A stretch of 64,000 nucleotides of DNA, taken from the NCBI GenBank assembly GCA_028718745.1, contig JAQULF010000001.1, forward strand, positions 31,666-95,665, in the 5' to 3' direction. The notes below the pieces were generated by a model that had not been told where the DNA came from, made no database searches, and was given only the letters and a program-made list of their open reading frames with translations. Shown here in pieces: positions 2,190 through 55,928 of this stretch (the stretch's first letter is position 1; each line of letters opens with the position of its first letter). Source of the stretch: Patescibacteria group bacterium (lineage in GTDB: Bacteria > Patescibacteriota > JACPGU01). A program made the translations under genes and the position numbers.

Positions 2190-4028
2190 TTATTTTTTCA
2201 TCAGATCCAAAAACACGTTCGACGGCACATTCACTCTCCCCAATGCCTTCATCTTTTTTTTGCCTTCTTTTTGCTTATTAATCAATTTATCTTTGCGAGT
2301 TCGATCACCTCCATAAAGGTATCCGGCGACATCTTTTTTCATCGCCGACATATTTTCGCGAGCCAATATCCGTGAGCCGATCGCCGCTTGAATAGAAACC
2401 TCAAACATCTGCCTTGGAATTAATTTTTTCAATTTGCTCACTATTTCATTGCCGGCTTTTTGCGCCTCATCCTTATCGACAATTTGGCTCAATGACTCAA
2501 TTTTATCTCCCGCCAAAAGCACATCCATTTTAGCCAAATTTCCTTCTCTTAGCCCTATATGCTCATAATTAAGCGACGCATAACCGGACGAAACCGATTT
2601 GAGATCATCATAAAAATCCTTGATCATTACAGCTAGCGGAACTTCATAAATAATCAAAGCCTTGCTCTCGTCAATATATTTTACTTCACGATAAATCCCG
2701 CGATACCTTCCTAGCATATCCAGAACTGATCCGACGAATGTCTTGGGCAATAATATCTCGGTAGTAACCCAAGGTTCGGAAATTGACTTGGTTCTTTCCA
2801 GCCCCGGAAATTCAGCCGGATTACTTGTCGCAATCTTCTCGCCATTAGTCAGCTCTATTTCATAACCAACAGTCGGATGAGTAATAATTAATTCCAAGTT
2901 AAATTCGCGCTCTAATCTTTCTTTGATAATATCAAGATGTAGCATGCCGAGAAACCCAACGCGAAAACCCAATCCCAAAACAGGGGAGTTTTCACCGGTA
3001 AATTCCAGCGCTGCATCATTCATTTTTAGTTTTGATAATCCTTCACGAAGCTTGTTTAAATCATTGCTGTCAGCCGGATAAATTCCCGCGAATACGGTTG
3101 GTTTTACTTTTTTATAACCCGGTAGGGGACTGATGTCTTCCTTAAATTTTTCAAGAGTAATCGTATCGCCCACTCCAACTAAAGAAATATCTTTGAGCGA
3201 AGTTACAATATAACCGATCTCACCAGCTAAAAGTTTCCCCGATTCCAGCATCCCCGGTTTGAAATAGCCAATCTCAAGCGCTTCTGCTCCCTTTTTTGCT
3301 GATACTAAAAATATTTTTTCGCCGCTTTTTACTTCTCCATCAAAAACGCGAACAAAGGCGATAACTCCGCGGTAAGAATCGTATTTTGAATCAAAAACCA
3401 AAGCGCGCAGTTTATCTGGTTTATCTGCCCGGACAACCCGGACATCCAATGTCGGGGAATTCCCCGACATTGGATGTCCGGGCGCTGGAATTCGCTCAAC
3501 TATCGCTTCCAAAACTTTTTCAACACCTTCGCCTGTCTTGGCCGAAACATAAATCATTTCTTCTTTTTTGAAACCGAAAGTGTTAATTAATTCTCCTGCT
3601 ACTTTTTCTCGATCAGCCGCCGGTAGATCGATTTTATTTATAATCGGGATTAAAGTTAATCCCTGCTCTTGCGCTTGATAGGCATTCGCCAGTGTCTGCG
3701 CTTGAATCCCCTGCGTCGCATCAACGATTAATAACGCCCCCTCAACCGCAGCCAGCGAGCGACTAACTTCATAAGCAAAATCTACATGACCGGGAGTATC
3801 AATCAAATTCAAAATATATTCCTTATAATTCATCCGTGCCGGCTGCAGTTTAATCGTTATGCCGCGTTCGCGTTCCAAATCCATCGTGTCAAGAAGCTGG
3901 TCTTTCATTTCTCTTTTGCTAACCGTTCCGGTCAACTCCAAAAGCCGATCCGCGAGAGTGCTTTTCCCGTGATCAATGTGTGCAATTATACAAAAGTTGC
4001 GTATATTTTTCATAAGTTTAGTGATCAA
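2190..4028 (-). CDS. lepA: Elongation factor 4 (LepA), with in-frame 15-aa palindrome-encoded insertion
   Basis: N-terminal GTPase motifs AHIDHGKST, DTPGHVDF; LepA-specific C-terminal domain; 612 aa. Confidence 0.95.
   Translation of the reverse strand: MITKLMKNIRNFCIIAHIDHGKSTLADRLLELTGTVSKREMKDQLLDTMDLERERGITIKLQPARMNYKEYILNLIDTPGHVDFAYEVSRSLAAVEGALLIVDATQGIQAQTLANAYQAQEQGLTLIPIINKIDLPAADREKVAGELINTFGFKKEEMIYVSAKTGEGVEKVLEAIVERIPAPGHPMSGNSPTLDVRVVRADKPDKLRALVFDSKYDSYRGVIAFVRVFDGEVKSGEKIFLVSAKKGAEALEIGYFKPGMLESGKLLAGEIGYIVTSLKDISLVGVGDTITLEKFKEDISPLPGYKKVKPTVFAGIYPADSNDLNKLREGLSKLKMNDAALEFTGENSPVLGLGFRVGFLGMLHLDIIKERLEREFNLELIITHPTVGYEIELTNGEKIATSNPAEFPGLERTKSISEPWVTTEILLPKTFVGSVLDMLGRYRGIYREVKYIDESKALIIYEVPLAVMIKDFYDDLKSVSSGYASLNYEHIGLREGNLAKMDVLLAGDKIESLSQIVDKDEAQKAGNEIVSKLKKLIPRQMFEVSIQAAIGSRILARENMSAMKKDVAGYLYGGDRTRKDKLINKQKEGKKKMKALGRVNVPSNVFLDLMKK
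3436..3481. repeat. 46-bp perfect GC-rich palindrome (centre GAATTC) inside lepA coding sequence
   Basis: cccggacatccaatgtcggggaattccccgacattggatgtccggg reads identically on both strands; encodes PGHPMSGNSPTLDVR in lepA and the same peptide in the opposite-strand ORF 3386..3571. Confidence 0.9.
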
Positions 4029-4135
4029 TGCCTGCCCCTCGAAGTTCGCATTGGCAATAACAGAATGTAATTCGTTTTGCCAGTAAGAACGAAGTGGGGT
4101 GAGCTATAATACAAAAATTTCGAATGTTTTTCATT

Positions 4136-4402
4136 TTAACCGGTTCCCAAATAATTATGTGTTCCCGCATATCTTATGTAAAAAGTATCATTTTCTATAT
4201 AAAAAAATATCCGATAATCTTTATCTATTAATATCTCTTTATAAATTTTGTAATCCCCTCGCAATGATTTTATATCAAAAGGAAAATCCTCCAAACTATC
4301 ACTTTCTAAAACAAAAGAAACCAATATCTCGGCTTTCTTTTTTATCTTTGGAGAGGACTTGGAAAGTTGTTTTTGGGCATCTCTATGAATTTCTATTCTC
4401 AT
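4136..4402 (-). CDS. Type II toxin, RelE/ParE family
   Basis: 88 aa; C-terminal pattern LRGDYKIYKEILIDKDYRIFFYIENDTFYIRYAGTH typical of RelE/ParE toxins; 4-nt overlap with upstream antitoxin. Confidence 0.7.
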   Translation of the reverse strand: MRIEIHRDAQKQLSKSSPKIKKKAEILVSFVLESDSLEDFPFDIKSLRGDYKIYKEILIDKDYRIFFYIENDTFYIRYAGTHNYLGTG

Positions 4403-4641
4403 TTAGAACCGATTAGCTTTCTAAAATGATTAATGTCTTTTATCTCGGTATATTCCTCTTTATTATCATTCTTTAATAATCTCAATTCCATTTTTGCATC
4501 TTTATCTTTTACAATTTGATTCAGATTCAATTCTATAAATTGAGTCAATGAAATACCAAGATCATCCAAAACCTTAGTGGCCATCTCTTTTAAGAGAGGA
4601 TTGATTCTCGCGTGAATATTGCTTGTTTTTGTTGTACTCAT
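4399..4641 (-). CDS. Type II antitoxin, RelB/DinJ-like (ribbon-helix-helix)
   Basis: start chosen at internal Met MSTTKTSNIHARINPLLKEMATKVLDDLGISLTQFIELNLNQIV, resembling DinJ/RelB N-terminus; overlaps toxin start. Confidence 0.6.
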   Translation of the reverse strand: MSTTKTSNIHARINPLLKEMATKVLDDLGISLTQFIELNLNQIVKDKDAKMELRLLKNDNKEEYTEIKDINHFRKLIGSK

Positions 4642-4751
4642 ATTTTTTACTTTATTAATATTATATCCATTATACATCATTGCAGCACAATTGCAACACA
4701 AAAAAAGCAGTTTTATGCACCCGCTTTATACTTAATACATCATACTTAATA

Positions 4752-6332
4752 CTACCTTAGAACTTTCCTAAATATCCCCGTCACCCCATCGAGAAGTTTC
4801 TGGGCTTCGGGAACTTTGAATATCGTAGAGAGAACGAGATAAATAAAGCAACCTACAAAACCGGCAATACAAGTTTGGCCAAGCAGACCGATTGTAGATA
4901 ATGTATTAAAATAATTCGCCGCGTAATACAGAGTGAAATAGGAAAAAACACCGGCAGAAATACTGAAAATCAGATATTTTCCTGAAGTCAAAAAGATCGC
5001 GTTCATATCAATCTTCTTGAATCTTTCTTTAAGTAAAACCAGCAGGAAGAAAAGATTTACAAAAGAGGCGATGACTCCGGCTAGAGCCAAGCCAACAACA
5101 TGAAATGGGATCACTTTTGTAAAAACAATGCTGCCGATAGCATTGACGATAAATGCGACCACAACTACTTTGACCGGGGTCTTCGTATCTCCGGTGGCGT
5201 AAAAAGCGCGCGCCAAAAATGGGACTAGTCCTTGCGCAACAAGCCCCAAAGCAAGATAGCCGAAAGTACGAGCCGTCCAGATAGTATTACTGACATCAAA
5301 AAGTCCGGCGCCTAAAATCAAACGAACGATATGGGCGCGAAAAACCAGCATCAAAACCATCGCCGGCATTAATAAATACAACATCATTTTAAATGTTTCG
5401 GTAAAATTCAGCACAAAAACATCATCTTTTTTCTGAGCGTGAGCGTACGAGAGAATTGGAAAAACTGACACCGCAAAAGATATTCCAATTAATCCCACCG
5501 GCAAACTAACCAGATTGGTTGCCAGATTTATAATGGCAATACTGCCATTTTCCAGTGTGGAACCGATAAGATTATCTACCAATAAATTAATTTGAACTAG
5601 GGCTAAACCAATCGTTACCGGCACCATCAGCCTCATTATTTTTACAAAATGCTCGTCCTTCCAATCAAAAACTTTTTGAAAGCGAAAGCCGACTTTGAAA
5701 AATGTGGGGACTTGCACCATCATGTGCGCGAAAGCTCCAATAACTACTCCCCAAGCCAATCCGGCCGTTCCTAAAACCGGAACAAGATATAGCGCGCCGA
5801 GAATTATTCCGATGTTGTAAAGAATGGGAGCTAGCGAATAAACGAAAAATTTTCCGAAACTATTAAGCACACCTCCGATAACAGATGAGATCGAGAAGAA
5901 AAGCGGCGAAAGCAGCATGATGCGGGTTAGAAGCGTTACTTCTTCCAATTGAACGGTATTAAATCCGGGAGTAGCGATTTTCATTATCCATGGACAGAAA
6001 ATAAAAATAACCAGCATAGCAGCAATTAAAACCACCAAGATAATATTGAGAAAGTTGCTAACCATTCTCCAGGCTTTTTTCTCATTTTTGAAAATAAGAT
6101 CGGAAAAAACCGGAATGAAAGCTGAAGACAAAGCGCCTAAAATTAACAAATTGAAAATCAAATCCGGAATTCGAAAGGCCGCGTAATAAGTATCCAGCGT
6201 CGCCCCGGCGCCAAATTCAGAAGCCAAAACACGATCTCGGAAAATACCAAGCAAGCGAGAGGCCAATGACGCCACCGCGATAATAATCGCATTTTGAGAA
6301 ACTAATGAAATTTTATCTAAAATATTTTTCAT
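4752..6332 (-). CDS. murJ: Lipid II flippase MurJ (MviN)
   Basis: 526 aa, about 14 TM segments, N-terminal RLLGIFRDRVLASEFGAGATLDTYYAAFRIPDL signature of MurJ. Confidence 0.9.
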   Translation of the reverse strand: MKNILDKISLVSQNAIIIAVASLASRLLGIFRDRVLASEFGAGATLDTYYAAFRIPDLIFNLLILGALSSAFIPVFSDLIFKNEKKAWRMVSNFLNIILVVLIAAMLVIFIFCPWIMKIATPGFNTVQLEEVTLLTRIMLLSPLFFSISSVIGGVLNSFGKFFVYSLAPILYNIGIILGALYLVPVLGTAGLAWGVVIGAFAHMMVQVPTFFKVGFRFQKVFDWKDEHFVKIMRLMVPVTIGLALVQINLLVDNLIGSTLENGSIAIINLATNLVSLPVGLIGISFAVSVFPILSYAHAQKKDDVFVLNFTETFKMMLYLLMPAMVLMLVFRAHIVRLILGAGLFDVSNTIWTARTFGYLALGLVAQGLVPFLARAFYATGDTKTPVKVVVVAFIVNAIGSIVFTKVIPFHVVGLALAGVIASFVNLFFLLVLLKERFKKIDMNAIFLTSGKYLIFSISAGVFSYFTLYYAANYFNTLSTIGLLGQTCIAGFVGCFIYLVLSTIFKVPEAQKLLDGVTGIFRKVLR

Positions 6333-6382
6333 GAGTTACAAATAGTTACAAATTCACACAAATATAATTATAGCAGATTCCC

Positions 6383-6414
6383 TTACTGCTTACTACCTAC
6401 TACTTACTACTTAA
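6383..6414. repeat. TACTACT-type heptamer tandem array abutting the stop codon of the ABC transporter gene
   Basis: cttactgcttactacctactacttactactta; a near-identical array at 57251-57285 abuts the efp stop. Confidence 0.8.
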
Positions 6415-6417
6415 TGC

Positions 6418-8205
6418 CTAGAGCTTCTGTAACTCGTAGAATTTTCGATAAGCCCCGCCTCGTTTTTTGATTAGATCTTTATGCTTGCCTTCTTCAACCA
6501 CTCTCCCCTTATCCAAAACCAAGATTCGATCCGCCTTGCGAACTGTGGAAAGGCGATGCGCGATGATGAATGTTGTTCTTCCTGTCATTAATTCCTCAAG
6601 CGCCGCCACTACTTCTCTTTCACTTTTCGCATCCAGCGCCGAAGTCGGCTCGTCTAGAATTAAAATGCGAGGATCTTTCAAAATCGCTCGAGCAATCGCA
6701 ATTCTTTGTTTTTGTCCTCCGGAAAGTTTTACTCCGCGATCGCCAACCAACTGATTGTACTTGTTTCTGAATTTTTGAATAAAGTCATGCGCAAAAGCTT
6801 TTTTGGAAGCTACTAACATTTCTTTGTCGCTGGCTCCAAAACAACCATATTTGATGTTTGCCTTAACCGTATCATTAAAAAGCAAAATCTCTTGCGGCAC
6901 TATAGCAATTTTTCTTCTCAAAAACTCCAGGTCAATTTTCGAATTTTCCACTCCATCAATATATATTTTCCCTTTTTGCGGCTGGTAATAATTGGAAATA
7001 AGATCGGCCAAGGTGGTTTTACCTACACCCGATTCGCCAACTAGTGCGATGATTTCTCCCGGCTTAACGCTAAAGCTGATATCATTCAAAACATCCTGAT
7101 TCTTTTTTTCATATTTGAAAGATACATTTTCAAATTTTACCGATCCCGCGATATCATTCATTTTTACCGCATCTTTTGGGGTATAATTTTCCGGCTTAAC
7201 ATTGATGATATTTTCCGCTCTTTCAACACTGATCAAAATGTTTTGCATATTCTGCCATTTATTAACCATACTGGAAAATGGCGAGAAAAGCATGGCGATA
7301 TAAGTGTTGTACATCATTAGCTGACCAATGGTAATTTGGCCATTCCAGATCAGAATTATGGAATAGGAAAAAACAAATATCTGTACAGCCAATACCATTC
7401 CGCGATAAAAAAGCTGATTTCTCTGCCAAATCTTAAGGTAGTGCAATAGAAAATTAAGTCCTTTTTCTATAAAGATATTTTTTACTTTCTTTGACTCATA
7501 TTCTTCTGCGACATATTGTTTTACATTTTGAATGTTTATCACCACATCATAACTATGGCCATAAGCCTTGTTATAACCCTTATTCATTTTACGGCGCAAT
7601 CCGGCCAAATCAGGAGTAATTTTGAATAGAAGATAGACATAGATAGCCAAAGCTATCACCACAACTGTCGTCAAAAACCAGCTGACAAAGAACATGAAGA
7701 TAAGCGCGAAAATGACTCCCAAAAATTGAGGGAGGAGATCGGCCACTATACCGCTAAAAACATTGTAGATGTTACCGCTGGCTCTATTTAATTTATCCAT
7801 CACATCCCCAAGTTTGTGGTTTTTTGTAAAAGACAAGGGTAATCTCAAAATAGCCGCCACCCCATCATACATATAAGCTACTTCGGCGCTTTCCGCTAAT
7901 AAACTTACCATGCGATCCAGTCTCCAACTAATCAGATCCGCAATTGCTTTTGCCACCGCCCATAAAACGAGGTAAACAAAAACTGCCTTCAATACATAGC
8001 TAAGAAGGTGAATATCGCTAGGTGTCACTATGCCATCAATAACTTTTCCGGAGAGATAGGGAACTACAGTATTAAAAACAGCCACCAATACACTGGCGAC
8101 CGATATCCCGATCAGTTCTTTTTTGTAGCGAATAAAATGTCTTTTCAAATAGCCGCTTTTGGCAACCATCTGCCGAAATGTCAGCTTATTCTTTTTCTTT
8201 TGCAT
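6418..8205 (-). CDS. ABC transporter, fused permease/ATP-binding (type I exporter, MsbA-like)
   Basis: 595 aa; 6 TM N-terminal domain; Walker A GESGVGKTT, signature LSGGQKQRIAIARA, Walker B ILILDEPTSALD. Confidence 0.9.
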   Translation of the reverse strand: MQKKKNKLTFRQMVAKSGYLKRHFIRYKKELIGISVASVLVAVFNTVVPYLSGKVIDGIVTPSDIHLLSYVLKAVFVYLVLWAVAKAIADLISWRLDRMVSLLAESAEVAYMYDGVAAILRLPLSFTKNHKLGDVMDKLNRASGNIYNVFSGIVADLLPQFLGVIFALIFMFFVSWFLTTVVVIALAIYVYLLFKITPDLAGLRRKMNKGYNKAYGHSYDVVINIQNVKQYVAEEYESKKVKNIFIEKGLNFLLHYLKIWQRNQLFYRGMVLAVQIFVFSYSIILIWNGQITIGQLMMYNTYIAMLFSPFSSMVNKWQNMQNILISVERAENIINVKPENYTPKDAVKMNDIAGSVKFENVSFKYEKKNQDVLNDISFSVKPGEIIALVGESGVGKTTLADLISNYYQPQKGKIYIDGVENSKIDLEFLRRKIAIVPQEILLFNDTVKANIKYGCFGASDKEMLVASKKAFAHDFIQKFRNKYNQLVGDRGVKLSGGQKQRIAIARAILKDPRILILDEPTSALDAKSEREVVAALEELMTGRTTFIIAHRLSTVRKADRILVLDKGRVVEEGKHKDLIKKRGGAYRKFYELQKL

Positions 8206-8328
8206 AAAAAGTTTTCCACTGCGAAGTGGAAATATTTATTTTTGTTTGAAATCATTATAACATATTTTGTAAATAAAAAAACCGGGCAGTACACACCGGT
8301 TTAATTTCGAGACCATATCCCACATTCT

Positions 8329-8646
8329 TTATGGCCTCAATGTTACTGTGGAACCAGCGGGCTTGAACGCCGCCAGCGGGACATACTCAATTTCATATTC
8401 TTCAAGCCTCCACATTATCTTCTCGATCGCATTAAGTTCTGAATTTGTCAGAAAAAACACTCGGATGTAGGGCTTCACACCAGAAGTCGTCCCGACAAGC
8501 TCCATCTTAAATTGATCACGAAGATCTGCCAGATACGGGAACTCGTCCATGACATCGCACATCGCCTTGGTCACAAGATCGCATATCACATTTGCGGCAG
8601 CTAGTTCAGCAGGAAGCAAAAACGAGCAATGGGTCTCAACTCTCAT
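8329..8646 (-). CDS. hypothetical protein (GC-rich cluster gene 3)
   Basis: 105-aa ORF; GC-richer than genome background; terminator hairpin downstream at about 8275-8305. Confidence 0.4.
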   Translation of the reverse strand: MRVETHCSFLLPAELAAANVICDLVTKAMCDVMDEFPYLADLRDQFKMELVGTTSGVKPYIRVFFLTNSELNAIEKIMWRLEEYEIEYVPLAAFKPAGSTVTLRP

Positions 8647-8681
8647 TCATTTCACCTCCCCCCGTTTCTTTTTTTCATACT

Positions 8682-9068
8682 TCACCGGTAAACATGATGA
8701 CGGAAATCTTTTGAGCCAGCGGACTTGAAGAAATCCATGGCAACAATCCCGACATCGTAGTCAACAAGATGCTTCGAAATTACTTTTTGCAACTTCTCAT
8801 TCCACGCGTCGTTCAGCCCATAAATAAATATCTGGGTGGCGGTTTTATTTCCGGAGATTTCAGCCTCCACAATCATGAGAGTAATCTTCTCCCGTATCTT
8901 AAGGGGGAGCTTTTTCTTTACTCTCTCAATCGCTGCCCTGACATCCGCTTTTGTCTTCAAAACATTTCCCTCATCGGGGGTAAACACGACAATGTGCGGC
9001 AACTCTTTCACCTCCTCACTTTCTTTTCGACCGAAGTCGTGGAATTTATGCTTTTTTGTAAAAATCAC
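8682..9068 (-). CDS. hypothetical protein (GC-rich cluster gene 2)
   Basis: 128-aa ORF, no recognisable motif. Confidence 0.4.
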   Translation of the reverse strand: MIFTKKHKFHDFGRKESEEVKELPHIVVFTPDEGNVLKTKADVRAAIERVKKKLPLKIREKITLMIVEAEISGNKTATQIFIYGLNDAWNEKLQKVISKHLVDYDVGIVAMDFFKSAGSKDFRHHVYR

Positions 9069-9288
9069 ACATGGTCACGGGACAAGGTCTGGCCATGTTG
9101 AAGGCTTTGTATTTACCCGTTTTCCAGTTGATGGGATAAGGGCAATCGCCGCCTTTCGTTTTTGCCCTTGCGCACGAAAGACATATCGAGATTCTGGTTT
9201 GGTCTGAAGAAAAGGTTATAGTAGGAAGCTTTGATTTCCCTTCCTTTTTCATGTCCGAATACCTCGCACTTTGTATTTTTTGGTTCAT
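9046..9288 (-). CDS. hypothetical Cys-rich small protein (GC-rich cluster gene 1)
   Basis: 80 aa with CxxC...C...C pattern; overlaps next ORF by 23 nt. Confidence 0.35.
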   Translation of the reverse strand: MNQKIQSARYSDMKKEGKSKLPTITFSSDQTRISICLSCARAKTKGGDCPYPINWKTGKYKAFNMARPCPVTMCDFYKKA

Positions 9289-9313
9289 TAATTCTTAATG
9301 TCCGATCTTGGGT

Positions 9314-9441
9314 GGGGAAACTCCGCCCCTACAATGCGTTGGCTCCATGCTCCTGCGTGGAGCCAGTTTGTTCATTGATGTATTAAAAAATCCTTTTAAA
9401 TGCTTTATGTACATTAAGGTTCCATGCGGGAGCATGGAACC
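9314..9441. repeat. Intergenic nest of GC-rich palindromic elements related to the in-frame elements in tsaE and tlyA
   Basis: ggggaaactccgcccctacaatgcg (shares cgcccctacaa-tgc with tsaE element), gcgttggctccatgctcctgcgtggagcc (29/29 identical to tlyA element at 55384-55412), and palindrome ggttccatgcgggagcatggaacc. Confidence 0.8.
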
Positions 9442-9449
9442 AACTACAT

Positions 9450-11279
9450 TTATGAAATAATTATTGCTTCAAATTCCTCGCGTTCAATTACTTCTTTCTC
9501 AAGAAGCACCGACGCGATTTTATCTAAAATATCCTTGTGATTGGTTACGATGCCGTTCGCAACTGTTTCGGCTTTGGTCATAATAATTTGAACTTCATCG
9601 TCAATCGCTTGCGCGGTTTTTTCCGAATAATTTTTGGCTTCAGCAATATCGCGACCCAAAAAAACCATTTCGTCTTTATCATGAAAACTGATCGGCCCAA
9701 GTCGATCGCTCATACCATATTCTTTCACCATTTTACGCGCCATAGAAGTTGCTTGCGTTAAATCATTTTGCGCTCCAGTGGTTAGCTCGCCAAAAATTAA
9801 AATTTCGGATTCGCGACCAGCAAGATAAACTGCGATATCATCTTCAAAAGCGGTTTTTGATTTTAGAACGCGATCAAATTCCGGCGGATTCCAAGTGTAG
9901 CCCAAAGCTCTTCCGCGAGAGACAATGGAAATTTTTTGCACCGGATCAGCATTTGGCAAAAAGTGTGCAACCAGAGCATGGCCGGCTTCATGATAAGCCG
10001 TGATTTTTCTTTCTTCTTCGGTAATAACTTTGCTTTTTCGCTCCGGACCCATGAGGGTTTTTTCAATTGCTTCACCAATATATTCCATGCTGATTGTGGT
10101 TTTGTTATCGCGCGCGGATAATATCGCCGCTTCGTTCAAAAGATTGCGCAGATCAGCGCCGGAAAATCCCGGGGTTTTTTGCGCTATTTTAAATAAATCA
10201 ACATTGCCTTCCAAGGGTTTTGTTTTCACATGAACTTTCAAAATCGCTTCTCTTTCTTTAATATCCGGCAAATCAATCAAAACTCTTCGATCAAATCTTC
10301 CCGGACGAAGTAGTGCCGGATCCAAAACATCGGGACGGTTCGTTGCCGCCATGACAATCACACCGGAGTCGGTATCAAATCCGTCGAGTTCTACTAAAAT
10401 TTGATTCAAAGTTTGTTCTCTTTCATCATGCGATCCGCCAAGTCCTGCTCCTCTTTGACGGCCCACTGCATCTATTTCGTCTATAAAAATAATACAAGGC
10501 GCGTTTCTTTTTGCCTTGGCGAAGAGATCGCGAACGCGTGAAGCTCCGACCCCCACAAACATTTCCACAAATTCCGAACCGGAAATTGAGAAAAATGGAA
10601 CACCGGCTTCTCCGGAAACCGCTTTGGCTAACAAAGTTTTGCCCGTTCCCGGAGGTCCAAGAAGAAGTACCCCCTTGGGAATTTCGGCACCCATATCTTT
10701 ATATTTCTTCGGATTTTTCAAAAAGTCTACAATTTCAACTAGATCTTTTTTGGCTTCTTCAGATCCGGCCACATCTTTAAAAGTGACGCGGGAATCCTGC
10801 AGATTTACTCGAGCGCGAGATTTACCAAAAGACAATGCCTGCTGATTGGCGCCTTGAGCCGATCTCAACATCATCCAAACAAATCCGGCCATCAGTAAAA
10901 ATAGAAGCGCTGTCGGAAGTATATCTAACCAAATGGAACCGGTATCGCTATTTTTAATCTCGATATTGGTTTTATCCGGAGTAATTCCATAAGCGGTCAA
11001 AGAAATAGCCGCTTCCTTGTAGGCAATTTGTTCATTCTTGCCGTCTTTTGCTTCTTTAAGGAAAATATCCAGTTTGTCGCCATCAACCAAAATGCGATCG
11101 ACTTGACCTTGTTTAACCTCTTCAACAACTTGGGAGATATTAACTTGCGTAGTTTTAGTACTAGTCGTTTCAGTTGCTTTGGAATAAGCAAAACTAGCCC
11201 CTATCACCAGGATTAAAATTAGGATTAACCAATTGTTTTTTAGAATCTTTCCAAACCCGTTTTTCTTTTCGTTTGCCAT
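9450..11279 (-). CDS. ftsH: ATP-dependent zinc metalloprotease FtsH
   Basis: AAA+ Walker A GPPGTGKT, second region of homology, HEAGHAL zinc site; start placed at MANEKKNG before N-terminal TM helix (ORF track starts 62 codons upstream). Confidence 0.92.
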
Positions 11280-15489: not shown

Positions 15490-16395
15490 TTGTGGCTTCT
15501 GTCACAGAACCAAAACATTAATCAAAAGACCATGTCAGCTTACGATGACTTTCAAAATAGATTCAAACTATTAGCCAGCAAGAATCCACATCTGGTTATA
15601 AATACTTTGTCTAACATTTTTACTATGAGGCTAATCGGCAATAAAACCCATGGTGATTTAGCCGAAATTGGAATGGCCGAATTTATCAATCAGTTTATGT
15701 ATGACTTTAAGAGTATCCATGTCGGCAAGGATTTATTTCGAGCCAAAGAACACGAAGAAGACATTATTATTATCAATGAAATTACAAAAACCGAATTCCC
15801 ATTAAGCTTAAAAGCGTACGGCGACGGTCCTCTCCAGCTTTCGACCGATAGTGATCAAAAAATGTTTCCATTCTTGGAAAAACAGGGAAGAAACATTACG
15901 GATAGAGACAAGATCAAAAAAATCTTTCAGTCAAAAGAATTTGCGGATTTTGATGCGATTAATGTTATGCCTCTTATCTATGATGAGAAAAAACAACGGT
16001 GCAACATAATGATTTTCGATCATAAAAAAGCTATGAGTAAAACAGAAAGAATTATCTTTATTGATAAAAATCAAAGATTTGATTCAGAAACGAGAAGGGT
16101 AATTCCAGGCAAGGGTAGATCGCATCCTATTTTTATGTTTGTTGATAAAAAAAGCAACTACATTTGTGAAGTTCGGTACGGTGGCGCATCCGCCAATGCT
16201 TTACAGAGAGGCTTGTGGACGCATACAAAAAACGCCGTTTCCTATTTTGATTCTTTGACAAACGGCTGGATTGATTATTCTCACAATCACGCTCTTGTAA
16301 CATTATTTAGTCTGGCACTTAACAGTTCGGAATATGGTCATAAATTGGCCAATGAAATATTGCAAAAAGACATTGATAGACTCAAAACGCTATGA
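15490..16395 (+). CDS. putative type II restriction endonuclease (cognate to downstream Dam-like methyltransferase)
   Basis: 301-aa ORF with no homology recognised; stop overlaps MTase start (ATGA); very AT-rich; alternative start MSAYDD at 15532. Confidence 0.4.
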   Translation: MWLLSQNQNINQKTMSAYDDFQNRFKLLASKNPHLVINTLSNIFTMRLIGNKTHGDLAEIGMAEFINQFMYDFKSIHVGKDLFRAKEHEEDIIIINEITKTEFPLSLKAYGDGPLQLSTDSDQKMFPFLEKQGRNITDRDKIKKIFQSKEFADFDAINVMPLIYDEKKQRCNIMIFDHKKAMSKTERIIFIDKNQRFDSETRRVIPGKGRSHPIFMFVDKKSNYICEVRYGGASANALQRGLWTHTKNAVSYFDSLTNGWIDYSHNHALVTLFSLALNSSEYGHKLANEILQKDIDRLKTL

Positions 16396-17582
16396 GCAAT
16401 CAACAAGATATATTTGGGAAAATAATGGTCTCAACGCCAAAAACACAGGGAATAAAATATGCCGGATCCAAACTGAAAATTTTACCCTATATTATTGATA
16501 TTGTCTCGGAATTAAAAGGAGTTAAAAAAGTGCTCGATGGTTTTACAGGAACAACTCGTGTCGCGCAAGCGCTCGCCCAGCTTGGTTATGATGTGACTGC
16601 CAGCGATATTTCCACTTGGTCGGAGGTTTTTGCCAATTGTTATTTGAAATCAAAAAAACCGGATGAGTTTTATCAAGATATTATCAACCATCTCAATGAT
16701 CTCAAGGGTTATGATGGCTGGTACACGAAGTATTACGGCGGAAAATTAACAGGGGATGATAAAAGGCCGTTTCAAGTAAAAAATACGCGCAAATTAGATG
16801 CCATAAGAGATGAAATAGAAAAATTGAATCTGGAGTGGGTTGATAAATGCGTGATTTTAACCAGTTTAATTTATGCGCTCGACTCTGTCGATAGCACTCT
16901 CGGGCATTATGTAGCCTATCTTTCTGAATGGTCGCCGAGATCACATAATGATCTGGTATTAAAACTGCCAAAAAGGTTTGAAGGCGAAGGTAAGCACAAA
17001 GTAATCCGGAGCGATATTTTTGAGACTATTGCAAATGATGAATATGATCTAGCTTATTTTGATCCGCCCTATGGCTCCAACAATGAAAAAATGCCACCTA
17101 GTCGAGTTCGCTACGCATCTTATTATCACATTTGGACAACTATTATAAAGCATGACAAGCCGGTTGTTTTTGGAAAAGTAAATCGCCGAGAAGACAGTCG
17201 GGATTTGGTAGCTGGTTCGGTATTTGAAGAATTTAGAAAGGATAAAAATGGTTCTTTTGTCGCTATGCAGGCGTTGCGCAAATTGGTAAGAGAAACAAAG
17301 GCGCGCTATATATTGTTGTCATATAGCTCCGGTGGTAGAGCCACAAAACAGGAACTCAACGACATAATAAATGAATCGGGTAAATTATTAAAGGCTGTTG
17401 AAATTGACTACAAGAAAAATGTGATGGCTAATATGCGCTGGACGCACGAATGGATCAATAGTGATGAAAAATATCATGAATATCTTTTTCTAATGGAAAA
17501 GAATCCTGTAAAAAGTAGCTATTTAGATCAAGAGCGAATATTTATGAATAAAAAAGTTCTGGTTTGCAATCCGATTGGTTAA
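16392..17582 (+). CDS. N6-adenine DNA methyltransferase, Dam/D12 class
   Basis: N-terminal IKYAGSKLKILPYI (Dam KWAGGK-like motif), LDGFTGTT, catalytic YFDPPYG (DPPY). Confidence 0.8.
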   Translation: MSNQQDIFGKIMVSTPKTQGIKYAGSKLKILPYIIDIVSELKGVKKVLDGFTGTTRVAQALAQLGYDVTASDISTWSEVFANCYLKSKKPDEFYQDIINHLNDLKGYDGWYTKYYGGKLTGDDKRPFQVKNTRKLDAIRDEIEKLNLEWVDKCVILTSLIYALDSVDSTLGHYVAYLSEWSPRSHNDLVLKLPKRFEGEGKHKVIRSDIFETIANDEYDLAYFDPPYGSNNEKMPPSRVRYASYYHIWTTIIKHDKPVVFGKVNRREDSRDLVAGSVFEEFRKDKNGSFVAMQALRKLVRETKARYILLSYSSGGRATKQELNDIINESGKLLKAVEIDYKKNVMANMRWTHEWINSDEKYHEYLFLMEKNPVKSSYLDQERIFMNKKVLVCNPIG

Positions 17583-19471: not shown

Positions 19472-19543
19472 GTCCTCGTAGTTTAATGGATAGAATGCGG
19501 CCCTGCGAAGGCTGCGATCCAGGTTCGATTCCTGGCGAGGATA
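19472..19543 (+). tRNA. tRNA-Arg (anticodon GCG), G1-U72 acceptor pair
   Basis: cloverleaf: acceptor GTCCTCG/CGAGGAT, D-arm with GG, anticodon stem CGGCC/GGCTG with loop CTGCGAA, T-arm CCAGGTTCGATTCCTGG; discriminator A. Confidence 0.6.
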
Positions 19544-19559
19544 TTTAATTGTAGCAAAG

Positions 19560-19625
19560 GGTTCGCCCAGTCATCCGACTGGGCGACCGATCGAATGATC
19601 GGTCGATTCCTAGTGGGGATATTTT
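19560..19625 (+). other. tRNA 3-prime-end-like remnant: two GC-rich hairpins plus degenerate T-loop/acceptor copy
   Basis: gcccagt-catccg-actgggc and gaccgatc-gaat-gatcggtc hairpins then ggtcgattcctagtggggata, resembling the tRNA 3-prime end ggttcgattcctggcgaggata. Confidence 0.4.
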
Positions 19626-19832: not shown

Positions 19833-20960
19833 GTGGCAAAAAAATCAGGAAATGAGTATGCGGATGCAGGAGTGGACTACACAAAGCTGGAAGCTTTCAA
19901 AGACATGATGATCGAAGTCGGCAAGCGCACCACGGGATTCCCGAACATTCGCAATGTATGCGTCGTTACTGACGCAATCCATGCGCACGGCGCGGTTTTC
20001 GAGTACACCGGCGATCAGCCTCATATCTGGTGTAAGACTCAGGAGGGGCTCGGAAACCTGAACTGGATCGCCGAGTGGATGCTTCAATTCGACGGCACGA
20101 AACGCAGCCGTTATGATATCCTCGGTCGCGCAGCAGCGCTTCTCATCGCGATTGATGTCATCGCGCAGGGAGCAATGCCGGTAATCTGGACGGATGAAAT
20201 CGCCGCGGGAGACAGTGACTGGTTCACCAACAAACAGAGGGCGGCCGACTATGCACAGGGATGCTTCGATGTCTGCAAGGAAATCGGCATGGCTCTGCCG
20301 GCCGGCGAATCACCCGCGCTCAAGTATCTCATCAAAGCGGAGCCGCCTGTTACAAGTGCTCCGTCATTGAGCGGATCCATAACCGGCATAATCGCTCCGA
20401 AAAGCCGGCTTATCACGGGCGCAAAATTGCGAGCAGGAGATGTGATTCTGGGCGCTCCCTCATCAGGGCTTCATTCTAACGGAATATCGCTCGTGATCAA
20501 GGAGGTCATGAAACTCTCGGATCAGTTCCTTACCAAGCTCAACGGCCAGACAGTGGGCGAGGAATGTCTCATTCCGATTCCATCGTATGTCAAATTGGTC
20601 GAAGCCCTACTCGAAAACGAAATCGAAATCCACGCCATATTGCCGGCAACCGGAGACGGCGTCGGCAAAATCGCGTTCGACAAACGCCCGTTCACCTACC
20701 GGGTCCACACATGGTGGCCAAAGATACCGCCGCTGTTCCTTTTCATGAAAGAACTGGGCGTGACCCTCGAAGGATGCCTCAAAACCTTCAACTGGGGCGC
20801 CGGAATCTACTTCTATGTGCCACGCTCAAGCGTTGACTCGGCAGTGGAAGTCGCCGCGCACGCCGGGTATGATCTGCTCGAACTCGGCCGGGTTGAAGAA
20901 GGAGAACGAAAAACCATCTTCGAGCCGGAAAGCGTCACGCTTCCCCCGCCGGGAGAATAA
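19833..20960 (+). CDS. AIR synthase-related (PurM superfamily) protein, GC-rich, GTG start
   Basis: N-terminal YADAGVDYTKLEAFK like PurM YKDAGVDI; conserved APSSGLHSNGISLV (PurM GxHSNGxSL motif); ORF much GC-richer than surroundings; RBS aaacggggg before GTG. Confidence 0.6.
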   Translation: MAKKSGNEYADAGVDYTKLEAFKDMMIEVGKRTTGFPNIRNVCVVTDAIHAHGAVFEYTGDQPHIWCKTQEGLGNLNWIAEWMLQFDGTKRSRYDILGRAAALLIAIDVIAQGAMPVIWTDEIAAGDSDWFTNKQRAADYAQGCFDVCKEIGMALPAGESPALKYLIKAEPPVTSAPSLSGSITGIIAPKSRLITGAKLRAGDVILGAPSSGLHSNGISLVIKEVMKLSDQFLTKLNGQTVGEECLIPIPSYVKLVEALLENEIEIHAILPATGDGVGKIAFDKRPFTYRVHTWWPKIPPLFLFMKELGVTLEGCLKTFNWGAGIYFYVPRSSVDSAVEVAAHAGYDLLELGRVEEGERKTIFEPESVTLPPPGE

Positions 20961-22257: not shown

Positions 22258-22265
22258 TAAGTTAG

Positions 22266-22333
22266 GATTAAATGATTAAATGAATAAAGGATTGTATTTT
22301 CTAATCATTTAGTCTTTTATTCCTTTATTCATT
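22266..22333. repeat. AT-rich inverted-repeat element (AAATGATTAAATGAATAAAGGA family), copy 1
   Basis: gattaaatgattaaatgaataaagga ... taatcatttag ... tcctttattcatt; related copy at 53490-53578. Confidence 0.7.
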
Positions 22334-29431: not shown

Positions 29432-30246
29432 TCAAAAGGTGAATTCGGCAAAACCCAAAGACCCAAAAGAACCAAAACTATACCGGCAATAAGGTGTAGT
29501 TTTCTTATATTTCTCTGCTTCCAATGTTCGGTTTTGTCTACTCTCAAAAATCCTAAATATACACCTAACATAATTACTATCAATGGTAGAGAAAAGAGAA
29601 TATTGTAATACGCCAGAATCGGAAGAATCAAAAGCTTGCTGGTACTTTGGGATAAAACACCTAAGACAAAAACATAAGGTCCGCCGGTACAAGGTAGTTC
29701 AAAAGCGGTAACTAAAACACCGGTCAAAAACGCAACCGGAACAGTCGTAGCTTTGGCTAAAAGAAGCGACATTTTTGGTCTCCATTTTCTCGGAATTTCT
29801 ACAAGAAATCCGCCGCCGCCATACCAGAAATAATCCTTGATATTGAGTAATCCCATCACAGTTCCGAAGATACCCATTATCCAGTGAAATATGGTTGGGT
29901 TGATCCATGTATTGATTTTTAAAGCATAAAAAATACCTGCTCCGAAAAGGAAGTAAGTAATGTAAAGTCCGATGATAAAAGCCGATCCGACTTTCAAAAT
30001 CTTTTTTCGGTCGCCAAAAAACACGAGCGCGGATAAAACAAATAGGAGTACTGCAATAGCGCAAGGATTGATTGAGTCAACAAAAGCTGATGAGGTTATC
30101 AGCCAAAAAGTCGGTACCTTGGGCGCAAGACAATCTGTATTTTGAATCGTGCAAGTTCCCGCAGCCCAGGTAGCCGCTGGCGCGGCCAAAGAAAACAAAA
30201 AAACAAAAAAACAAAAAAACAAATTTTTCCAATTTATTTTCTTCAT
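29308..30246 (-). CDS. DsbD/CcdA-like thiol-disulfide transmembrane protein
   Basis: 312 aa, signal peptide, multiple TM, paired Cys motifs INPCAIAV and ELPCTGGPY; 3-prime end overlaps smpB by about 120 nt. Confidence 0.45.
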   Translation of the reverse strand: MKKINWKNLFFCFFVFLFSLAAPAATWAAGTCTIQNTDCLAPKVPTFWLITSSAFVDSINPCAIAVLLFVLSALVFFGDRKKILKVGSAFIIGLYITYFLFGAGIFYALKINTWINPTIFHWIMGIFGTVMGLLNIKDYFWYGGGGFLVEIPRKWRPKMSLLLAKATTVPVAFLTGVLVTAFELPCTGGPYVFVLGVLSQSTSKLLILPILAYYNILFSLPLIVIMLGVYLGFLRVDKTEHWKQRNIRKLHLIAGIVLVLLGLWVLPNSPFDYIIPLLDSLFKSLFFISSRLSHFFLLFANPISSLIIPFLR

Positions 30247-30374
30247 AAACAGATTTTATCATAAATAGCCAGATTTTCCAAGAACAAAAAGAAATCTCGG
30301 CTTGCCGAGATTTCTTTAAAATTGTTTTCTTACTTTCTTGTTTTCTTGCTTTATTGCTTTCTTGTTTTTTTGTC

Positions 30375-30932
30375 CTAAAACTGTACCTTTACCGCTTCTC
30401 TCTCCGCTGCTGCCGCTTCAAACATCAACTTGGGAGTTTTGAATCCTAGAATGCCGGCAACCAACATGGTTGGAAACACAGCAATTTTGATGTTAAATTC
30501 TCGAACATTGGCATTGTAGTATCTTCGAGAAACCTCAATCTTATCCTCGGTTTCGGTCAATTGAGTCTGAAGATCCAAGAAATTTTGATTCGCTTTCAAA
30601 TCAGGATAAGCTTCAGCTACGGCAAAAAGAGATTTCAAGGTGTTGGTTAGCATATTTTCCGCTTCCGCTCTATCAGCCGGAGTCTTGGCATTCATGGCTG
30701 CCGTTCTGGCCTTAGTAACTTCTTCAAAAACTCCTTTTTCATGAGCTGCATAGCCCTTGACTGTTTCAACCAAGTTTGGAATCAGGTCATATCTCCTTTT
30801 TGTCTGCACATCAATGTCGGCAAAAGCCTCATTGCAGCGGACATTTAAATTAACCAATCCGTTAAAAATAGCAATTATCCATAAAAGAATAATGGATCCA
30901 ACTACGATTAATCCAATTACTAGTGATGACAT
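30375..30932 (-). CDS. lemA: LemA family protein
   Basis: N-terminal TM then NGLVNLNVRCNEAFADIDVQTKRRYDLIPNLVETVKGYAAHEKGVFEEVTKAR typical LemA. Confidence 0.85.
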   Translation of the reverse strand: MSSLVIGLIVVGSIILLWIIAIFNGLVNLNVRCNEAFADIDVQTKRRYDLIPNLVETVKGYAAHEKGVFEEVTKARTAAMNAKTPADRAEAENMLTNTLKSLFAVAEAYPDLKANQNFLDLQTQLTETEDKIEVSRRYYNANVREFNIKIAVFPTMLVAGILGFKTPKLMFEAAAAEREAVKVQF

Positions 30933-31073: not shown

Positions 31074-31174
31074 TTGTCATTCCGGTGCTTCTGATGTAAT
31101 CATCAGAAAAACCGGAATCCAGGCCTGGATCCTTGATTTACTGTTGAGTACAACAGTGCTCAAGGATGACAACT
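31074..31174. repeat. MITE-like repeat element copy A (imperfect TGTCATYC ... AGGATGACAAC termini)
   Basis: shares gatccttgattt, ctgttgagtacaacag / ctgatgagtacatcag and aggatgacaac with copy at 46312-46472. Confidence 0.65.
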
Positions 31175-46311: not shown

Positions 46312-46472
46312 TGTCATCCTCGAACTCTATTTCAACTTAACCAAAAATATATATAAAAAAGTTGAAGAGAATATCAAGGATCTGCTATTTTATTGTGCTA
46401 AATTACTTTTTTTATTCCTGTCAGAGATCCTTGATTTCCTGATGAGTACATCAGGAGCTCGAGGATGACAAC
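46312..46472. repeat. MITE-like repeat element copy B with perfect 12-bp terminal inverted repeats TGTCATCCTCGA / TCGAGGATGACA
   Basis: left TIR 46312-46323, right TIR 46459-46470; internal hairpin cctgatg-agta-catcagg; in divergent typA/DUF456 intergenic region. Confidence 0.7.
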
Positions 46473-48431: not shown

Positions 48432-49193
48432 ATGGAACAAAATCGTTTTGACTTATCAAACCGCCTCTACTTTCTGGTATTGGCCGTGGGAATTTTACTA
48501 TTAATTCTGCTGGGCGTTTCCGCTTATTCGATTCAAAAGGCTGCTTCGGGCAATGCGCCTCGTGAAATCTCGTTTGACGGAGAAGGCAAAGTTTATGCCA
48601 AGCCGGATTTGGCAATTTTGCAGCTGGGCGTAACCAGTGAGGCTACCACATCCGAAGAAGTGGTAACGGCAAATAATAACAAGATGAATGGCATTACCGC
48701 GGCAATTAAGGCTTTGGGAGTAGTCGATACCGATATCGAAACGACTAATTATAATCTTTCGCCCAAATATAATTATACCGATAACAGGGGCAGTTTTATC
48801 GACGGCTATACTCTCAATCAAGATGTTCAGGTAAAAATCAGAGATTTTGATAAAATCAGCGCGGTTATTCAAAAAGCAACCTCTCTGGGAGCTAATACTA
48901 TCAATCAACTGCAATTTACCATTGATAATCCGGAGAAATTAAAAGCTCAAGCCGCCGATATTGCGATTGGTAAGGCTAAAGAGAAAGCTGCGAGCATTGC
49001 CAGCGCTTCCGGTTTAAAACTGGGAAAGATAGTTAATGTCTATGAAAGCGGCGGTTTAGTTAGCCCAACCCCGATGTACGGCGCAGCCGATAAAGCTACC
49101 GGTATGGGCGGAGGAAGCATACCTGCCCCGGATATCCAAACCGGCCAACAGGAAATTACAGTAACGATGAGTCTGACTTATCAGGTGAATTAA
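48432..49193 (+). CDS. SIMPL domain (DUF541) protein
   Basis: N-terminal TM; architecture PREISFDGEGKVYAKPDLAILQLGV...TITVTMSLTYQV typical of SIMPL/DUF541. Confidence 0.55.
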   Translation: MEQNRFDLSNRLYFLVLAVGILLLILLGVSAYSIQKAASGNAPREISFDGEGKVYAKPDLAILQLGVTSEATTSEEVVTANNNKMNGITAAIKALGVVDTDIETTNYNLSPKYNYTDNRGSFIDGYTLNQDVQVKIRDFDKISAVIQKATSLGANTINQLQFTIDNPEKLKAQAADIAIGKAKEKAASIASASGLKLGKIVNVYESGGLVSPTPMYGAADKATGMGGGSIPAPDIQTGQQEITVTMSLTYQVN

Positions 49194-49257
49194 AAGCGAA
49201 AAATAATTTTTTAAGGGCGCGATTCTATTGCGCCCTTTTTTGTGGTAAAATATCTTT

Positions 49258-49761: not shown

Positions 49762-49765
49762 ACAT

Positions 49766-50653: not shown

Positions 50654-50673
50654 TTATTATTAACTATGAATAT

Positions 50674-55155: not shown

Positions 55156-55928
55156 GGTAACATTTTAAATTTTAAATTAAAAAGAAATTCTTTATTTCCT
55201 TTCGCCCCCAAAATAGGTGACTCAACCTCTCCTAAAACTTCGAATCCATTTTCCTCGCACCATTTCCTAAAATCTTCTAATAACTTCTGATGAATCTTCG
55301 GATCCTTAATCACTCCCTTTATCTTGTCGACAATACTTTTCCCGGCTTCAAATTGTGGTTTGAAAAGAATGACAATTTCAGGAGCGTTGGCTCCATGCTC
55401 CTGCGTGGAGCCTGAATGTACAATATTCTTAATCACCGGCAAAATCTTTTTTAAAGAAATAAATGACACATCAATTACAAATAGATCTATTTTTTCCGGC
55501 AAGCTTTCTAAATATCTAAAATTTACTCCTTCCATCACCACTACTCTTGGATCATTTCTTAAGCGCCAATCTAATTGTCCTTTGCCCACATCGATAGCAT
55601 AAACTTTTTCAGCTCCGTTTTGCAAGGCAAAATCCGTAAACCCGCCGGTAGAAGAACCGATGTCGGCCACTATTTTGTTTTTGAAATTTAATTTGAAAGC
55701 TTTCGCCGCCGCTTCTAATTTTTCGGCGCCTCTGCCCACATATTTTGAGGTTTCCAAAATACCAATTTTAGCATCTTCGTCGAACTTTGATCCCGGCTTG
55801 GTTTCTTTTTTATCATCAACTAAAACCTGCCCGGCCATAATTAAGGCTTGAGCCTTTTCGCGAGAATCCGTTAATTTCCTTTCAAAGAGAAGTAGATCGA
55901 GGCGTTTTTTAAAAGCTTTTTTCATCAT
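55131..55928 (-). CDS. tlyA: TlyA family rRNA 2-prime-O-methyltransferase (S4 + FtsJ domains), with about 10-aa in-frame insertion
   Basis: RLDLLLFERKLTDSREKAQALIMAGQV (S4), ADIGSSTGGFTDFALQNGAEKVYAIDVG, DVSFISL; extra HSGSTQEHGANAP before KPQFEAGK. Confidence 0.85.
   Translation of the reverse strand: MMKKAFKKRLDLLLFERKLTDSREKAQALIMAGQVLVDDKKETKPGSKFDEDAKIGILETSKYVGRGAEKLEAAAKAFKLNFKNKIVADIGSSTGGFTDFALQNGAEKVYAIDVGKGQLDWRLRNDPRVVVMEGVNFRYLESLPEKIDLFVIDVSFISLKKILPVIKNIVHSGSTQEHGANAPEIVILFKPQFEAGKSIVDKIKGVIKDPKIHQKLLEDFRKWCEENGFEVLGEVESPILGAKGNKEFLFNLKFKMLPCYYMLEK
55379..55412. repeat. GC-rich palindromic element inside tlyA
   Basis: caggagc-gttggctccat-gctcctg overlapping ggctcca-tgctcctgcg-tggagcc; 29-bp identical to intergenic copy at 9336-9364. 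Confidence 0.85.

Follow-up and report, generated by a model that had tools for sequence, protein, structure and literature searches.

A perfect 46-bp palindrome in the lepA gene of a Patescibacteria genome: an in-frame insertion, possibly of a REP-like hairpin dimer

The lepA locus and its palindrome

The window analysed here is a stretch of 64,000 nucleotides (64 kb) of contig JAQULF010000001.1 from a Patescibacteria group bacterium (assembly GCA_028718745.1), and it carries lepA, the gene of EF4, which contains a perfect palindrome of 46 bp (Table 1). The lepA open reading frame (ORF) comprises 612 aa when read from TTG and 607 aa from the ATG at 4013, the latter being the NCBI form. Its product exactly matches a protein that NCBI lists for a 'Patescibacteria group bacterium' metagenome-assembled genome (MAG), and one LepA relative with 77% identity is labelled candidate division CPR3. 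The 46-mer equals its own reverse complement, occurs once in the window and does not extend beyond 46 bp. A sequence-only reading of this DNA had placed it at 3436-3481, and the actual position, 3437-3482, is one base to the right. The rest of that description was borne out: the palindrome is perfect, is centred on GAATTC, lies wholly within the lepA ORF and is richer in G+C than its host gene (0.61 versus 0.42, with 0.39 for the window). The plus-strand ORF 3386-3571 also encodes the same peptide as the lepA frame, as the symmetry trivially requires, and the 46-mer can be read without a stop in all three frames.

Table 1. Positions of lepA, of the palindrome and its parts, and of the other hairpin elements in the window
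Feature	Position	Strand	Basis
lepA (EF4), host gene, every domain intact	2190..4028	-	ORF and domain matches
lepA palindrome, perfect, 46 bp, centre GAATTC, lepA-frame peptide PGHPMSGNSPTLDVR	3437..3482	-	window sequence
Arm 1, own hairpin CCCGGACAT-CCA-ATGTCGGGG, core GACATCCAATGTC at 3441-3453	3437..3459	.	sequence
Arm 2, exact reverse complement of arm 1, core GACATTGGATGTC at 3466-3478	3460..3482	.	sequence
CCCGGACAA, near-direct repeat (9 nt) of the opening 9 nt of the 46-mer, CCCGGACAT	3428..3436	.	sequence
Insert with no counterpart in relatives, 48 nt, residues 184-199, GHPMSGNSPTLDVRVV	3432..3479	-	protein alignment, codon view, 5imq alignment
Predicted junction of a lepA allele lacking the insert, GCGCCC joined to CGGGCAGAT			
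Stretch of LepA peptide covering the insert, GHPMSGNSPTLDVR			
tsaE insert, 58-nt imperfect palindrome, +20 aa	49463..49520	+	fold; Thermotoga TsaE comparison
tsaB insert, 62-nt imperfect palindrome, outer stem TCCGGAGT/ACTCCGGA and two inner hairpins, about +20 aa	51383..51444	+	fold, z = -8.2
tlyA copy of a dispersed 39-nt hairpin repeat, +9 aa versus solved homologues	55384..55422	-	repeat comparison
Single GTAG-tagged hairpins, GTAGGGGCGGAG... and GTAGGGGCGCAATATATTGCGCCC	9310-9332; 58938-58961		

With the composition of the window, the chance of 23 consecutive complementary pairs is 3.9e-14 per position and 2.5e-9 per window, and the runner-up among spacer-free perfect palindromes in the window has arms of just 10 nt. 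The RNA fold of the palindrome region reaches -49.4 kcal/mol with a z of -7.9 (200 shuffles). An intrinsic terminator is ruled out, because no T-run follows the palindrome on either strand.

The palindrome consists of two identical hairpins that are inverted and joined by AATT. Each arm folds into a 21-nt hairpin whose 9-bp stem includes one G.G mismatch and whose 3-nt loop is CCA, and arm 1 is identical at 20 of 21 positions to CCCCGACATCCAATGTCGGGG from other genomes. The element is therefore an inverted dimer with the architecture of a head-to-head dimer of repetitive extragenic palindromic (REP) units (PMC3733652), or of a REPIN, a doublet of REP sequences forming a hairpin, as laid out in PMC3337134. 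Next to the element lies a 9-nt near-direct repeat of its first bases, and deletion of this CCCGGACAA leaves a 48-nt perfect palindrome, GCCCGGAC...GTCCGGGC.

Comparison with relatives shows an insertion rather than an ancestral loop. The 16 residues GHPMSGNSPTLDVRVV are missing in all 20 of the nearest LepA relatives (58-89% identity, alignment A1), every one of which reads IPAP-KGDxxGxLRAL. In two relatives for which DNA was inspected (L001 and L002, with 86% and 85% identity), the site holds ordinary codons, CCC AAA GGA GAC GAA AAG GGC GAT and CCA AAA GGC AGT GAA AAC GGC TCT, respectively, with neither a palindrome nor an arm. Thermus thermophilus EF4 (5imq) shows a 16-residue gap at the same position, and the solved EF4 structures do not have these residues. 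The sequence-only reading had estimated about 15 extra residues, or 45 nt, whereas comparison with the 20 relatives and 5imq gives 16 residues and 48 nt; the case that it named as a refutation, an ancestral loop shared by relatives, is not what these alignments show. On this basis, the 46-mer is a real, lineage-specific insertion.

The edges of the insert were set by the protein alignment and are ambiguous by a few bases. The net gain of 48 nt equals the 46-nt palindrome plus two bases, and it may perhaps be read as 39 + 9 nt, with slippage coming after an insertion. Behind the insert, seven residues of the linker are unusually diverged (RADKPDK versus KGDEKGD).

The insert lies between the GTP_EFTU domain, which ends at residue 181, and domain II, which starts at residue 207. 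In an AlphaFold2 model, residues 180-207 are coil and residues 186-199 have a predicted local distance difference test score (pLDDT) below 50; the model was built from a shallow alignment of 21 sequences and is poor overall (mean pLDDT 60.6), with the G domain and domain II confident. The placement, which had been anticipated as a surface loop, is consistent with a tolerated surface linker between domains. The insert is presumably tolerated because it adds a multiple of three nucleotides, without a stop codon, to a flexible part of the protein.

Hairpins and other features of the window and of other genomes

In a sliding fold of 70 nt, for which the window mean is -10.6 kcal/mol with a standard deviation of 5.3, the three most stable folds inside ORFs are those in lepA (-50.7 kcal/mol), tsaE (-41.6 kcal/mol) and tsaB (-37.7 kcal/mol). 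The tsaE insert is composed of GTAG+GGGCGGGG-TCA-CCCCGCCC, a 12-nt spacer and GGGCGCGG-GAA-CCGCGCCC+CTAC, and fits the published definition of a GTAG head-to-head heterodimer (PMC3733652). Its 20 extra residues fall between SPTFVLMKRY and YHMDAYRL when compared with solved TsaE structures. The tsaB insert is in frame and stands just upstream of the conserved GPGTFTG motif. The insert in tlyA belongs to a 39-nt hairpin repeat, GTTGGCTCCATGCTCCTGCGTGGAGCC..., that has three copies in the window, the others being at 9336-9374 and 9418-9441, and the copy at 9418-9441 carries compensatory stem changes. The covariance models of Rfam 15 gave no match at the lepA palindrome or at the tsaE and tsaB inserts, even with E values up to 5.

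The inserts in tsaE, tsaB and tlyA are demonstrated against solved structures and distant homologues. When the 295-aa nucleotidyltransferase encoded between tsaE and tsaB was used as a query, only relatives with 23-28% identity and no orthologous loci were retrieved; the three inserts are therefore not dated against close relatives.

The short motif GTAGGGGC occurs five times in the window against 0.7 expected, and four of the five sites are hairpins: 9310-9332, the two units of the tsaE insert, and 58938-58961. The fifth, at 45243-45250, was rejected as a repeat, being the conserved GRGELH motif of a BipA-like GTPase (identified by eye). The hairpin at 58938-58961 falls within the gene of ribosomal protein S6 (ORF 58713-59480; Pfam match at residues 3-91), in the part that encodes a C-terminal extension of 160 residues. 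Hairpins of repeat type do land in frame in genes of this genome, as the tsaE and tlyA inserts show.

Hairpin DNA is also found in relatives. Inserts of variable length at the tsaE loop position are common in 40 TsaE representatives with 37-56% identity (40 of the 150 listed). In two TsaE genes of genomes resembling the candidate phyla radiation (CPR), the insert DNA consists of an outer stem with inner hairpins (L154) and of a long hairpin starting with CTGTCATCCCGAGCG (L155). At about 1930-2010 of L156, which encodes the LepA relative P0015, a different, N-terminal loop insert is encoded by an imperfect palindrome of CCAATGACCAA-type repeats. Hairpins of the GTAGGGGC type recur in L156 and L157, and two of them apparently fall within a called radical-SAM ORF, judging by coordinates alone. 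By contrast, no strong palindrome was found inside an ORF in 25 kb of DNA from L001 and L002, the relatives nearest to the window. The N-terminal loop insert seen in L156 is carried by several LepA relatives (A1 columns 76-110; e.g. MTNDKFQMSNQIQNPN and ...ISMPNQ...LVIGHSDL) and is absent from LepA of the window.

A degenerate pattern derived from the arm, CCCSGACATYSRATGTCSGGG, was scanned in contigs of one genome per species and matched at least 119 loci, against about 10 expected by chance according to our own estimate. Verrucomicrobiota MAGs, with many contigs per genome, account for about two thirds of the matches listed. Among these matches the commonest form is the perfect hairpin CCCCGACAT-CSG-ATGTCGGGG, and the form with a CCA/TGG loop, which is identical to the window arm at 20 of 21 positions, occurs 22 times. 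Each lepA arm is likewise 20/21 identical to CCCCGACAT-NNN-ATGTCGGGG, which is dispersed in Verrucomicrobiota. The exact arm of the window is absent among the at least 119 loci, and the degenerate hairpin pattern matched 1 locus in IMG/VR. The base GTAG repeat in Verrucomicrobiota is GGTAGGGCGCGTCAC-TCC-GTGCGCGCC, and several of its copies hold the 21-nt hairpin in their loop, so that this hairpin acts as a module that inserts on its own. In Bacteroidota, as well as in some other genomes, it forms a terminator-like stem.

Several side observations were made on these loci. At L040, L048, L054, L058, L061, L091 and L110, GGTAGGGCGCGTCAC-TCC-GTGCGCGCC is present both with and without a nested CCCCGACATCSGATGTCGGGG, i.e. 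as a repeat inside a repeat. These loci belong to Verrucomicrobiota MAGs and to one MAG labelled Bifidobacteriaceae, CAYIOH01, which shares its repeats with the Verrucomicrobiota MAGs and whose label may be wrong. The 21-nt hairpin also occupies the place of the anticodon arm in tRNA-like sequences (L010, 2208-2228 and 2751-2771; L071, 1129-1149; L083, 3064-3084), whose flanks resemble D and T arms by appearance; there it would give a 13-nt loop or an extended stem. Two candidates were set aside. A 37-bp palindromic dimer of the same hairpin in Lewinella (L118) lies just downstream of a real gene, being terminator-like and not intragenic. Derivation of the lepA, tsaE and tsaB inserts from one composite Verrucomicrobial repeat was rejected, since BLAST against the 119 loci was at chance level for tsaE and tsaB.

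The window contains further repeats. The dispersed hairpin repeat GATCCTTGATTTNCTGNTGAGTACANCAG is found outside long ORFs at 31128-31156 and 46426-46454, with 90% identity and compensatory changes between the copies. An 8-nt unit, TTCTTGCT / TTCTTGTT, forms short arrays at 30311-30383, 31229-31285, 58672-58728 and 60334-60382, and its complementary A-rich form is at 30189-30226. An A+T-rich inverted repeat pair of 73 nt (22261-22333 / 53509-53581) is 77% complementary over a distance of 31 kb.

Some regions of unusual content were also recorded. In the tRNA-Arg region (19472-19625), two adjacent G+C-rich hairpins (19563-19605) directly follow tRNA-Arg; then comes ORF 19833-20960, with weak AIR-synthase-like domains and 55% G+C in a genome of 39% G+C, which may be an acquired island at the tRNA. 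A 664-residue ORF at 42456-44450 has 51% G+C, a composition atypical for the window, and a weak match to MutS domain V alone. A D12-class N6-adenine DNA methyltransferase (16392-17582) overlaps a 301-residue ORF ahead of it that has no Pfam match (region 15490-17582), and the two may be a restriction-modification pair.

Origin of the insert

With slightly better than even confidence, we favour an explanation in which a short REP-like hairpin entered lepA of this lineage as an inverted dimer, at the linker that connects the G domain with domain II. The gene would have stayed open because the gain is 48 nt, stop-free and located in a flexible surface linker. LepA would then carry a disordered loop of 16 residues that is tolerated and has no function for LepA. 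On this explanation the insert is one instance of a process that recurs in this genome and in its CPR relatives, where small G+C-rich hairpin repeats, single or as inverted dimers, would land in a gene-dense genome, the sole survivors being in-frame, stop-free copies in tolerant loops. The explanation is supported by the lack of the 16 residues in all relatives compared, by the layout of two inverted hairpins, by the repeat family that the arm matches, by the three additional in-frame hairpin inserts of the window, in tsaE, tsaB and tlyA, by the excess of GTAG hairpins, by the hairpin DNA in loops of other CPR genomes and by the known intragenic REPs; no Rfam family accounts for the element. 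We infer that the lepA copy came by the same route. By analogy, this route would be a single-strand hairpin transposition of the REP/REPIN type, with a Y1 (HUH) transposase acting in trans.

Several observations weigh against an inserted REP-like dimer. The lepA arm lacks the tag, GTAG or CGTC, that classified REPs carry. No target-site duplication is recognisable at the lepA element, as its flanks are not direct repeats of each other; the sole direct repeat, CCCGGACAA / CCCGGACAT, stands on one side of it. A perfect homodimer is expected to be unstable (PMC3733652), and therefore the insertion would have to be very recent, or its symmetry otherwise maintained. Allowing up to 3 mismatches, the arm is found in the 64-kb window just as the two arms themselves (0 in 100 shuffles). 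The exact arm, as a 20-mer, had 0 matches in metagenome contigs of the Joint Genome Institute (JGI), and the 46-mer had no significant match in phage and plasmid collections (E >= 3 or none). Pfam scans of about 55 window ORFs detected no Y1_Tnp/HUH transposase, other transposase or insertion sequence. The Verrucomicrobial link came to light through a pattern that had been derived from this very element, and the same hairpin also serves as an ordinary terminator stem in several phyla, so that a shared origin is unproven.

A protein search with the palindrome peptides of the three frames returned no candidates; the same search also missed LepA of the window itself. The sequence-only reading had proposed a selfish element inserted in frame and had called for a search for further copies of the 46-mer or its half-site. 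The insertion and its frame stand, whereas selfishness or mobility of the 46-mer is not shown: no second copy is present in the 64-kb window, and no transposase was found there.

It is unlikely that the palindrome formed de novo during replication or repair, through template switching or fold-back (snap-back) synthesis that copied neighbouring DNA in reverse complement where a fork had stalled or a break had occurred, although several features speak for such an origin. Such an event would create the structure in one step without any mobile element, and the perfect symmetry (46/46) is what a single copying event predicts. The 9-nt near-direct repeat abutting the palindrome and the complementary host flanks GCCCGGAC and GTCCGGGC suggest slippage or microhomology at the junction, and no second copy occurs in the window or in the JGI metagenome contigs. 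Template switching is documented as a one-event maker of perfect hairpins (10.1101/2023.04.19.537475). It needs, however, a pre-existing local arm, and none is present in relatives, all of which have a 7-residue linker, although an intermediate may have existed, the nearest relative being just 86-89% identical. The insert has 61% G+C in a gene of 42% and does not resemble the local sequence. Internal hairpins in the arms and a 20/21 match to an outside family are not expected from local copying, and tsaE, tsaB and tlyA carry inserts of repeat type whose palindromes are imperfect.

Alternatively, a foreign fragment such as a Verrucomicrobial hairpin repeat might have been captured at a break in lepA, with no resident family involved. 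The arm matches, at 20 of 21 positions, a hairpin that is multi-copy in Verrucomicrobiota and single-copy in the window, as this scenario would have it. We nevertheless consider it improbable: simple capture does not predict an inverted dimer, the exact arm of the window is in none of the listed loci, the BLAST comparison of the tsaE and tsaB inserts with the 119 loci stayed at chance level, and resident families of hairpin repeats are present in the genome.

A stretch of 23 bp corresponds to about two helical turns, the size that RNase III recognises. The very stable RNA helix (-49.4 kcal/mol, z = -7.9), which is about two turns long, and its symmetry without decay would suit a selected regulatory structure, in which the 23-bp helix acts as an RNase III site or as a ribosome pause tuning LepA, or in which the 16-residue loop is functional. 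This is likewise improbable, since the insert is absent from 20/20 relatives and hence not conserved, the loop is low-confidence coil in the model, and the lack of a T-run on either strand excludes a terminator. Moreover, unrelated hairpin inserts in unrelated genes point to a mutational process and not to a function specific to lepA.

As to assembly, Logan contigs (independent assembler, run SRR22315506) match the window at 4060-10311 and 48832-52364 with 0 mismatches; they are short and end there. The run sequenced the same population, and its reads, at least, thus reproduce the tsaE and tsaB inserts and the hairpins near 9.3 kb. The Logan assembly has no record of full-length LepA, whether as the 607-aa form, the 612-aa form or a guessed 424-aa partial, though its neighbours are present. 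We infer that the de Bruijn graph broke where a perfect palindrome exceeded k in length; because of the missing full-length LepA, the lepA palindrome rests on one assembly. An artefact of assembly or library, i.e. a chimeric or fold-back read built into the contig, is the least probable of the explanations, even though one assembly shows the insert, the LepA cluster has one member on one contig, and the neighbours of the missing Logan LepA are reproduced with 0 mismatches: lepA runs on in one frame, free of stops, on either side of the insert, a fold-back duplicates native sequence and neither arm is native, a de Bruijn assembler with k < 46 is by our inference expected to break at a perfect palindrome, which would explain the missing product, and the imperfect tsaE and tsaB inserts were reproduced exactly by the second assembler.

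Two further mechanisms were rejected. Ligation into a cut CCCGGG site would give a base count of 49 or 40 nt, neither of which is a multiple of 3. Translational bypass as in T4 gene 60 lacks matching in-frame take-off and landing codons here, and it is needless for an insert that is open.

A broader proposition, which we put forward as speculative and rather doubtful, is that CPR genomes host active REP/REPIN-like hairpins that repeatedly insert in frame in loops of essential genes (lepA, tsaE, tsaB and tlyA), that these are a major source of lineage-specific insertions in CPR, and that the module CCCCGACAT-NNN-ATGTCGGGG is shared with Verrucomicrobiota. Were it true, such sharing would mean that either a mobile hairpin of 21 nt or the enzyme moving it has spread horizontally. 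Small hairpin repeats would then influence protein sequences even where bacterial genomes are smallest and most densely packed with genes, and part of the puzzling insertions in conserved CPR proteins would be repeat DNA merely tolerated by selection. Such inserts would inflate apparent protein divergence, could break de Bruijn assemblies and could be mistaken for functional loops. The perfect 46-bp palindrome also provides a natural test case for the survival of such structures in a genome with reduced repair capacity. What share of protein-loop variation in CPR comes from repeats, and how a Verrucomicrobial hairpin module came to be in a CPR gene, are testable questions raised by this locus.

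Comparison with known systems

The closest parallel is with intragenic REP dimers (Di Nocera et al. 2013, PMC3733652). Intragenic REPs are mostly dimers encoding 20-30 aa and are most abundant in Opitutus terrae, a Verrucomicrobium, and in Rickettsia conorii (PMC3733652). In common with them, the lepA element consists of two short, inverted, G+C-rich stem-loops inside a housekeeping gene, is read in frame and adds residues, within a range of about 16-30, in a linker or loop. Its loop, CCA, fits the common loop consensus CMA, and the tsaE insert of the same window is a GTAG head-to-head dimer. The lepA arms also agree with the definitions in PMC3733652 for the unit (a stem-loop of 20-40 bp with a 5-13 bp stem and a short loop) and, arm 2 being the exact reverse complement of arm 1 around an AATT centre, for the inverted dimer. 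In contrast to these dimers, no GTAG/CTAC or CGTC/GACG tag is found at the arm ends or centre of the lepA element, whereas the tsaE insert has GTAG...CTAC. The lepA units are identical, forming a perfect homodimer, and are spaced by at most 4 nt. One copy of the element was seen in 64 kb of a contig of roughly 209 kb, while other hairpin families are multi-copy in the window. The host also differs, being a Patescibacteria MAG and not a member of Proteobacteria, Verrucomicrobia or Rickettsia.

REPINs, which are mobilised by the REP-associated tyrosine transposase (RAYT) (Bertels and Rainey; PMC3116915, PMC3337134), similarly consist of a pair of REP hairpins in inverted orientation, able to fold together as a single long hairpin, and a related family with GTAG tags is present in the genome that carries the lepA element. 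REPINs are extragenic, exist in tens to hundreds of copies and are accompanied by a single-copy RAYT gene, features that are not shown for the lepA element. Miniature inverted-repeat transposable elements, which have terminal inverted repeats and a target-site duplication, fit less well, for the whole lepA element is an inverted repeat and its flanks are not direct repeats.

Among the G+C-rich hairpin elements of mitochondria, some lie inside coding regions, and some are skipped by translational bypass. These elements, comprising the GC clusters of yeast (PMC4478555) and double-hairpin or repetitive hairpin-forming elements (PMC2800124), resemble the lepA element as short G+C-rich palindromic inserts in an A+T-rich, gene-dense genome. 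They differ in being organellar and unrelated in sequence, and the lepA insert is an ordinary open stretch of 16 codons.

Of the Rickettsia palindromic elements (RPEs), RPE-1 measures about 100-150 bp, and RPEs form recognisable multi-copy families. As with RPEs, the lepA insert is palindromic repeat-like DNA placed in frame in an otherwise intact, conserved and functional gene, with its peptide in a tolerant part of the protein, and the interpretation of RPEs as selfish DNA filtered by selection could be extended to it. The lepA element is shorter (46 bp), has no sequence relation to RPEs and is single-copy in the data at hand; instead of a family with copies in several genes, the window has no other copy, and the JGI metagenome contigs lack the arm. 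In-frame palindromic repeats seem not to have been described in Patescibacteria, as our literature searches found no such report. The phenomenon as such has been known since the RPEs of Rickettsia and the intragenic REPs of Opitutus terrae, and the lepA insert is thus not a new kind of system.

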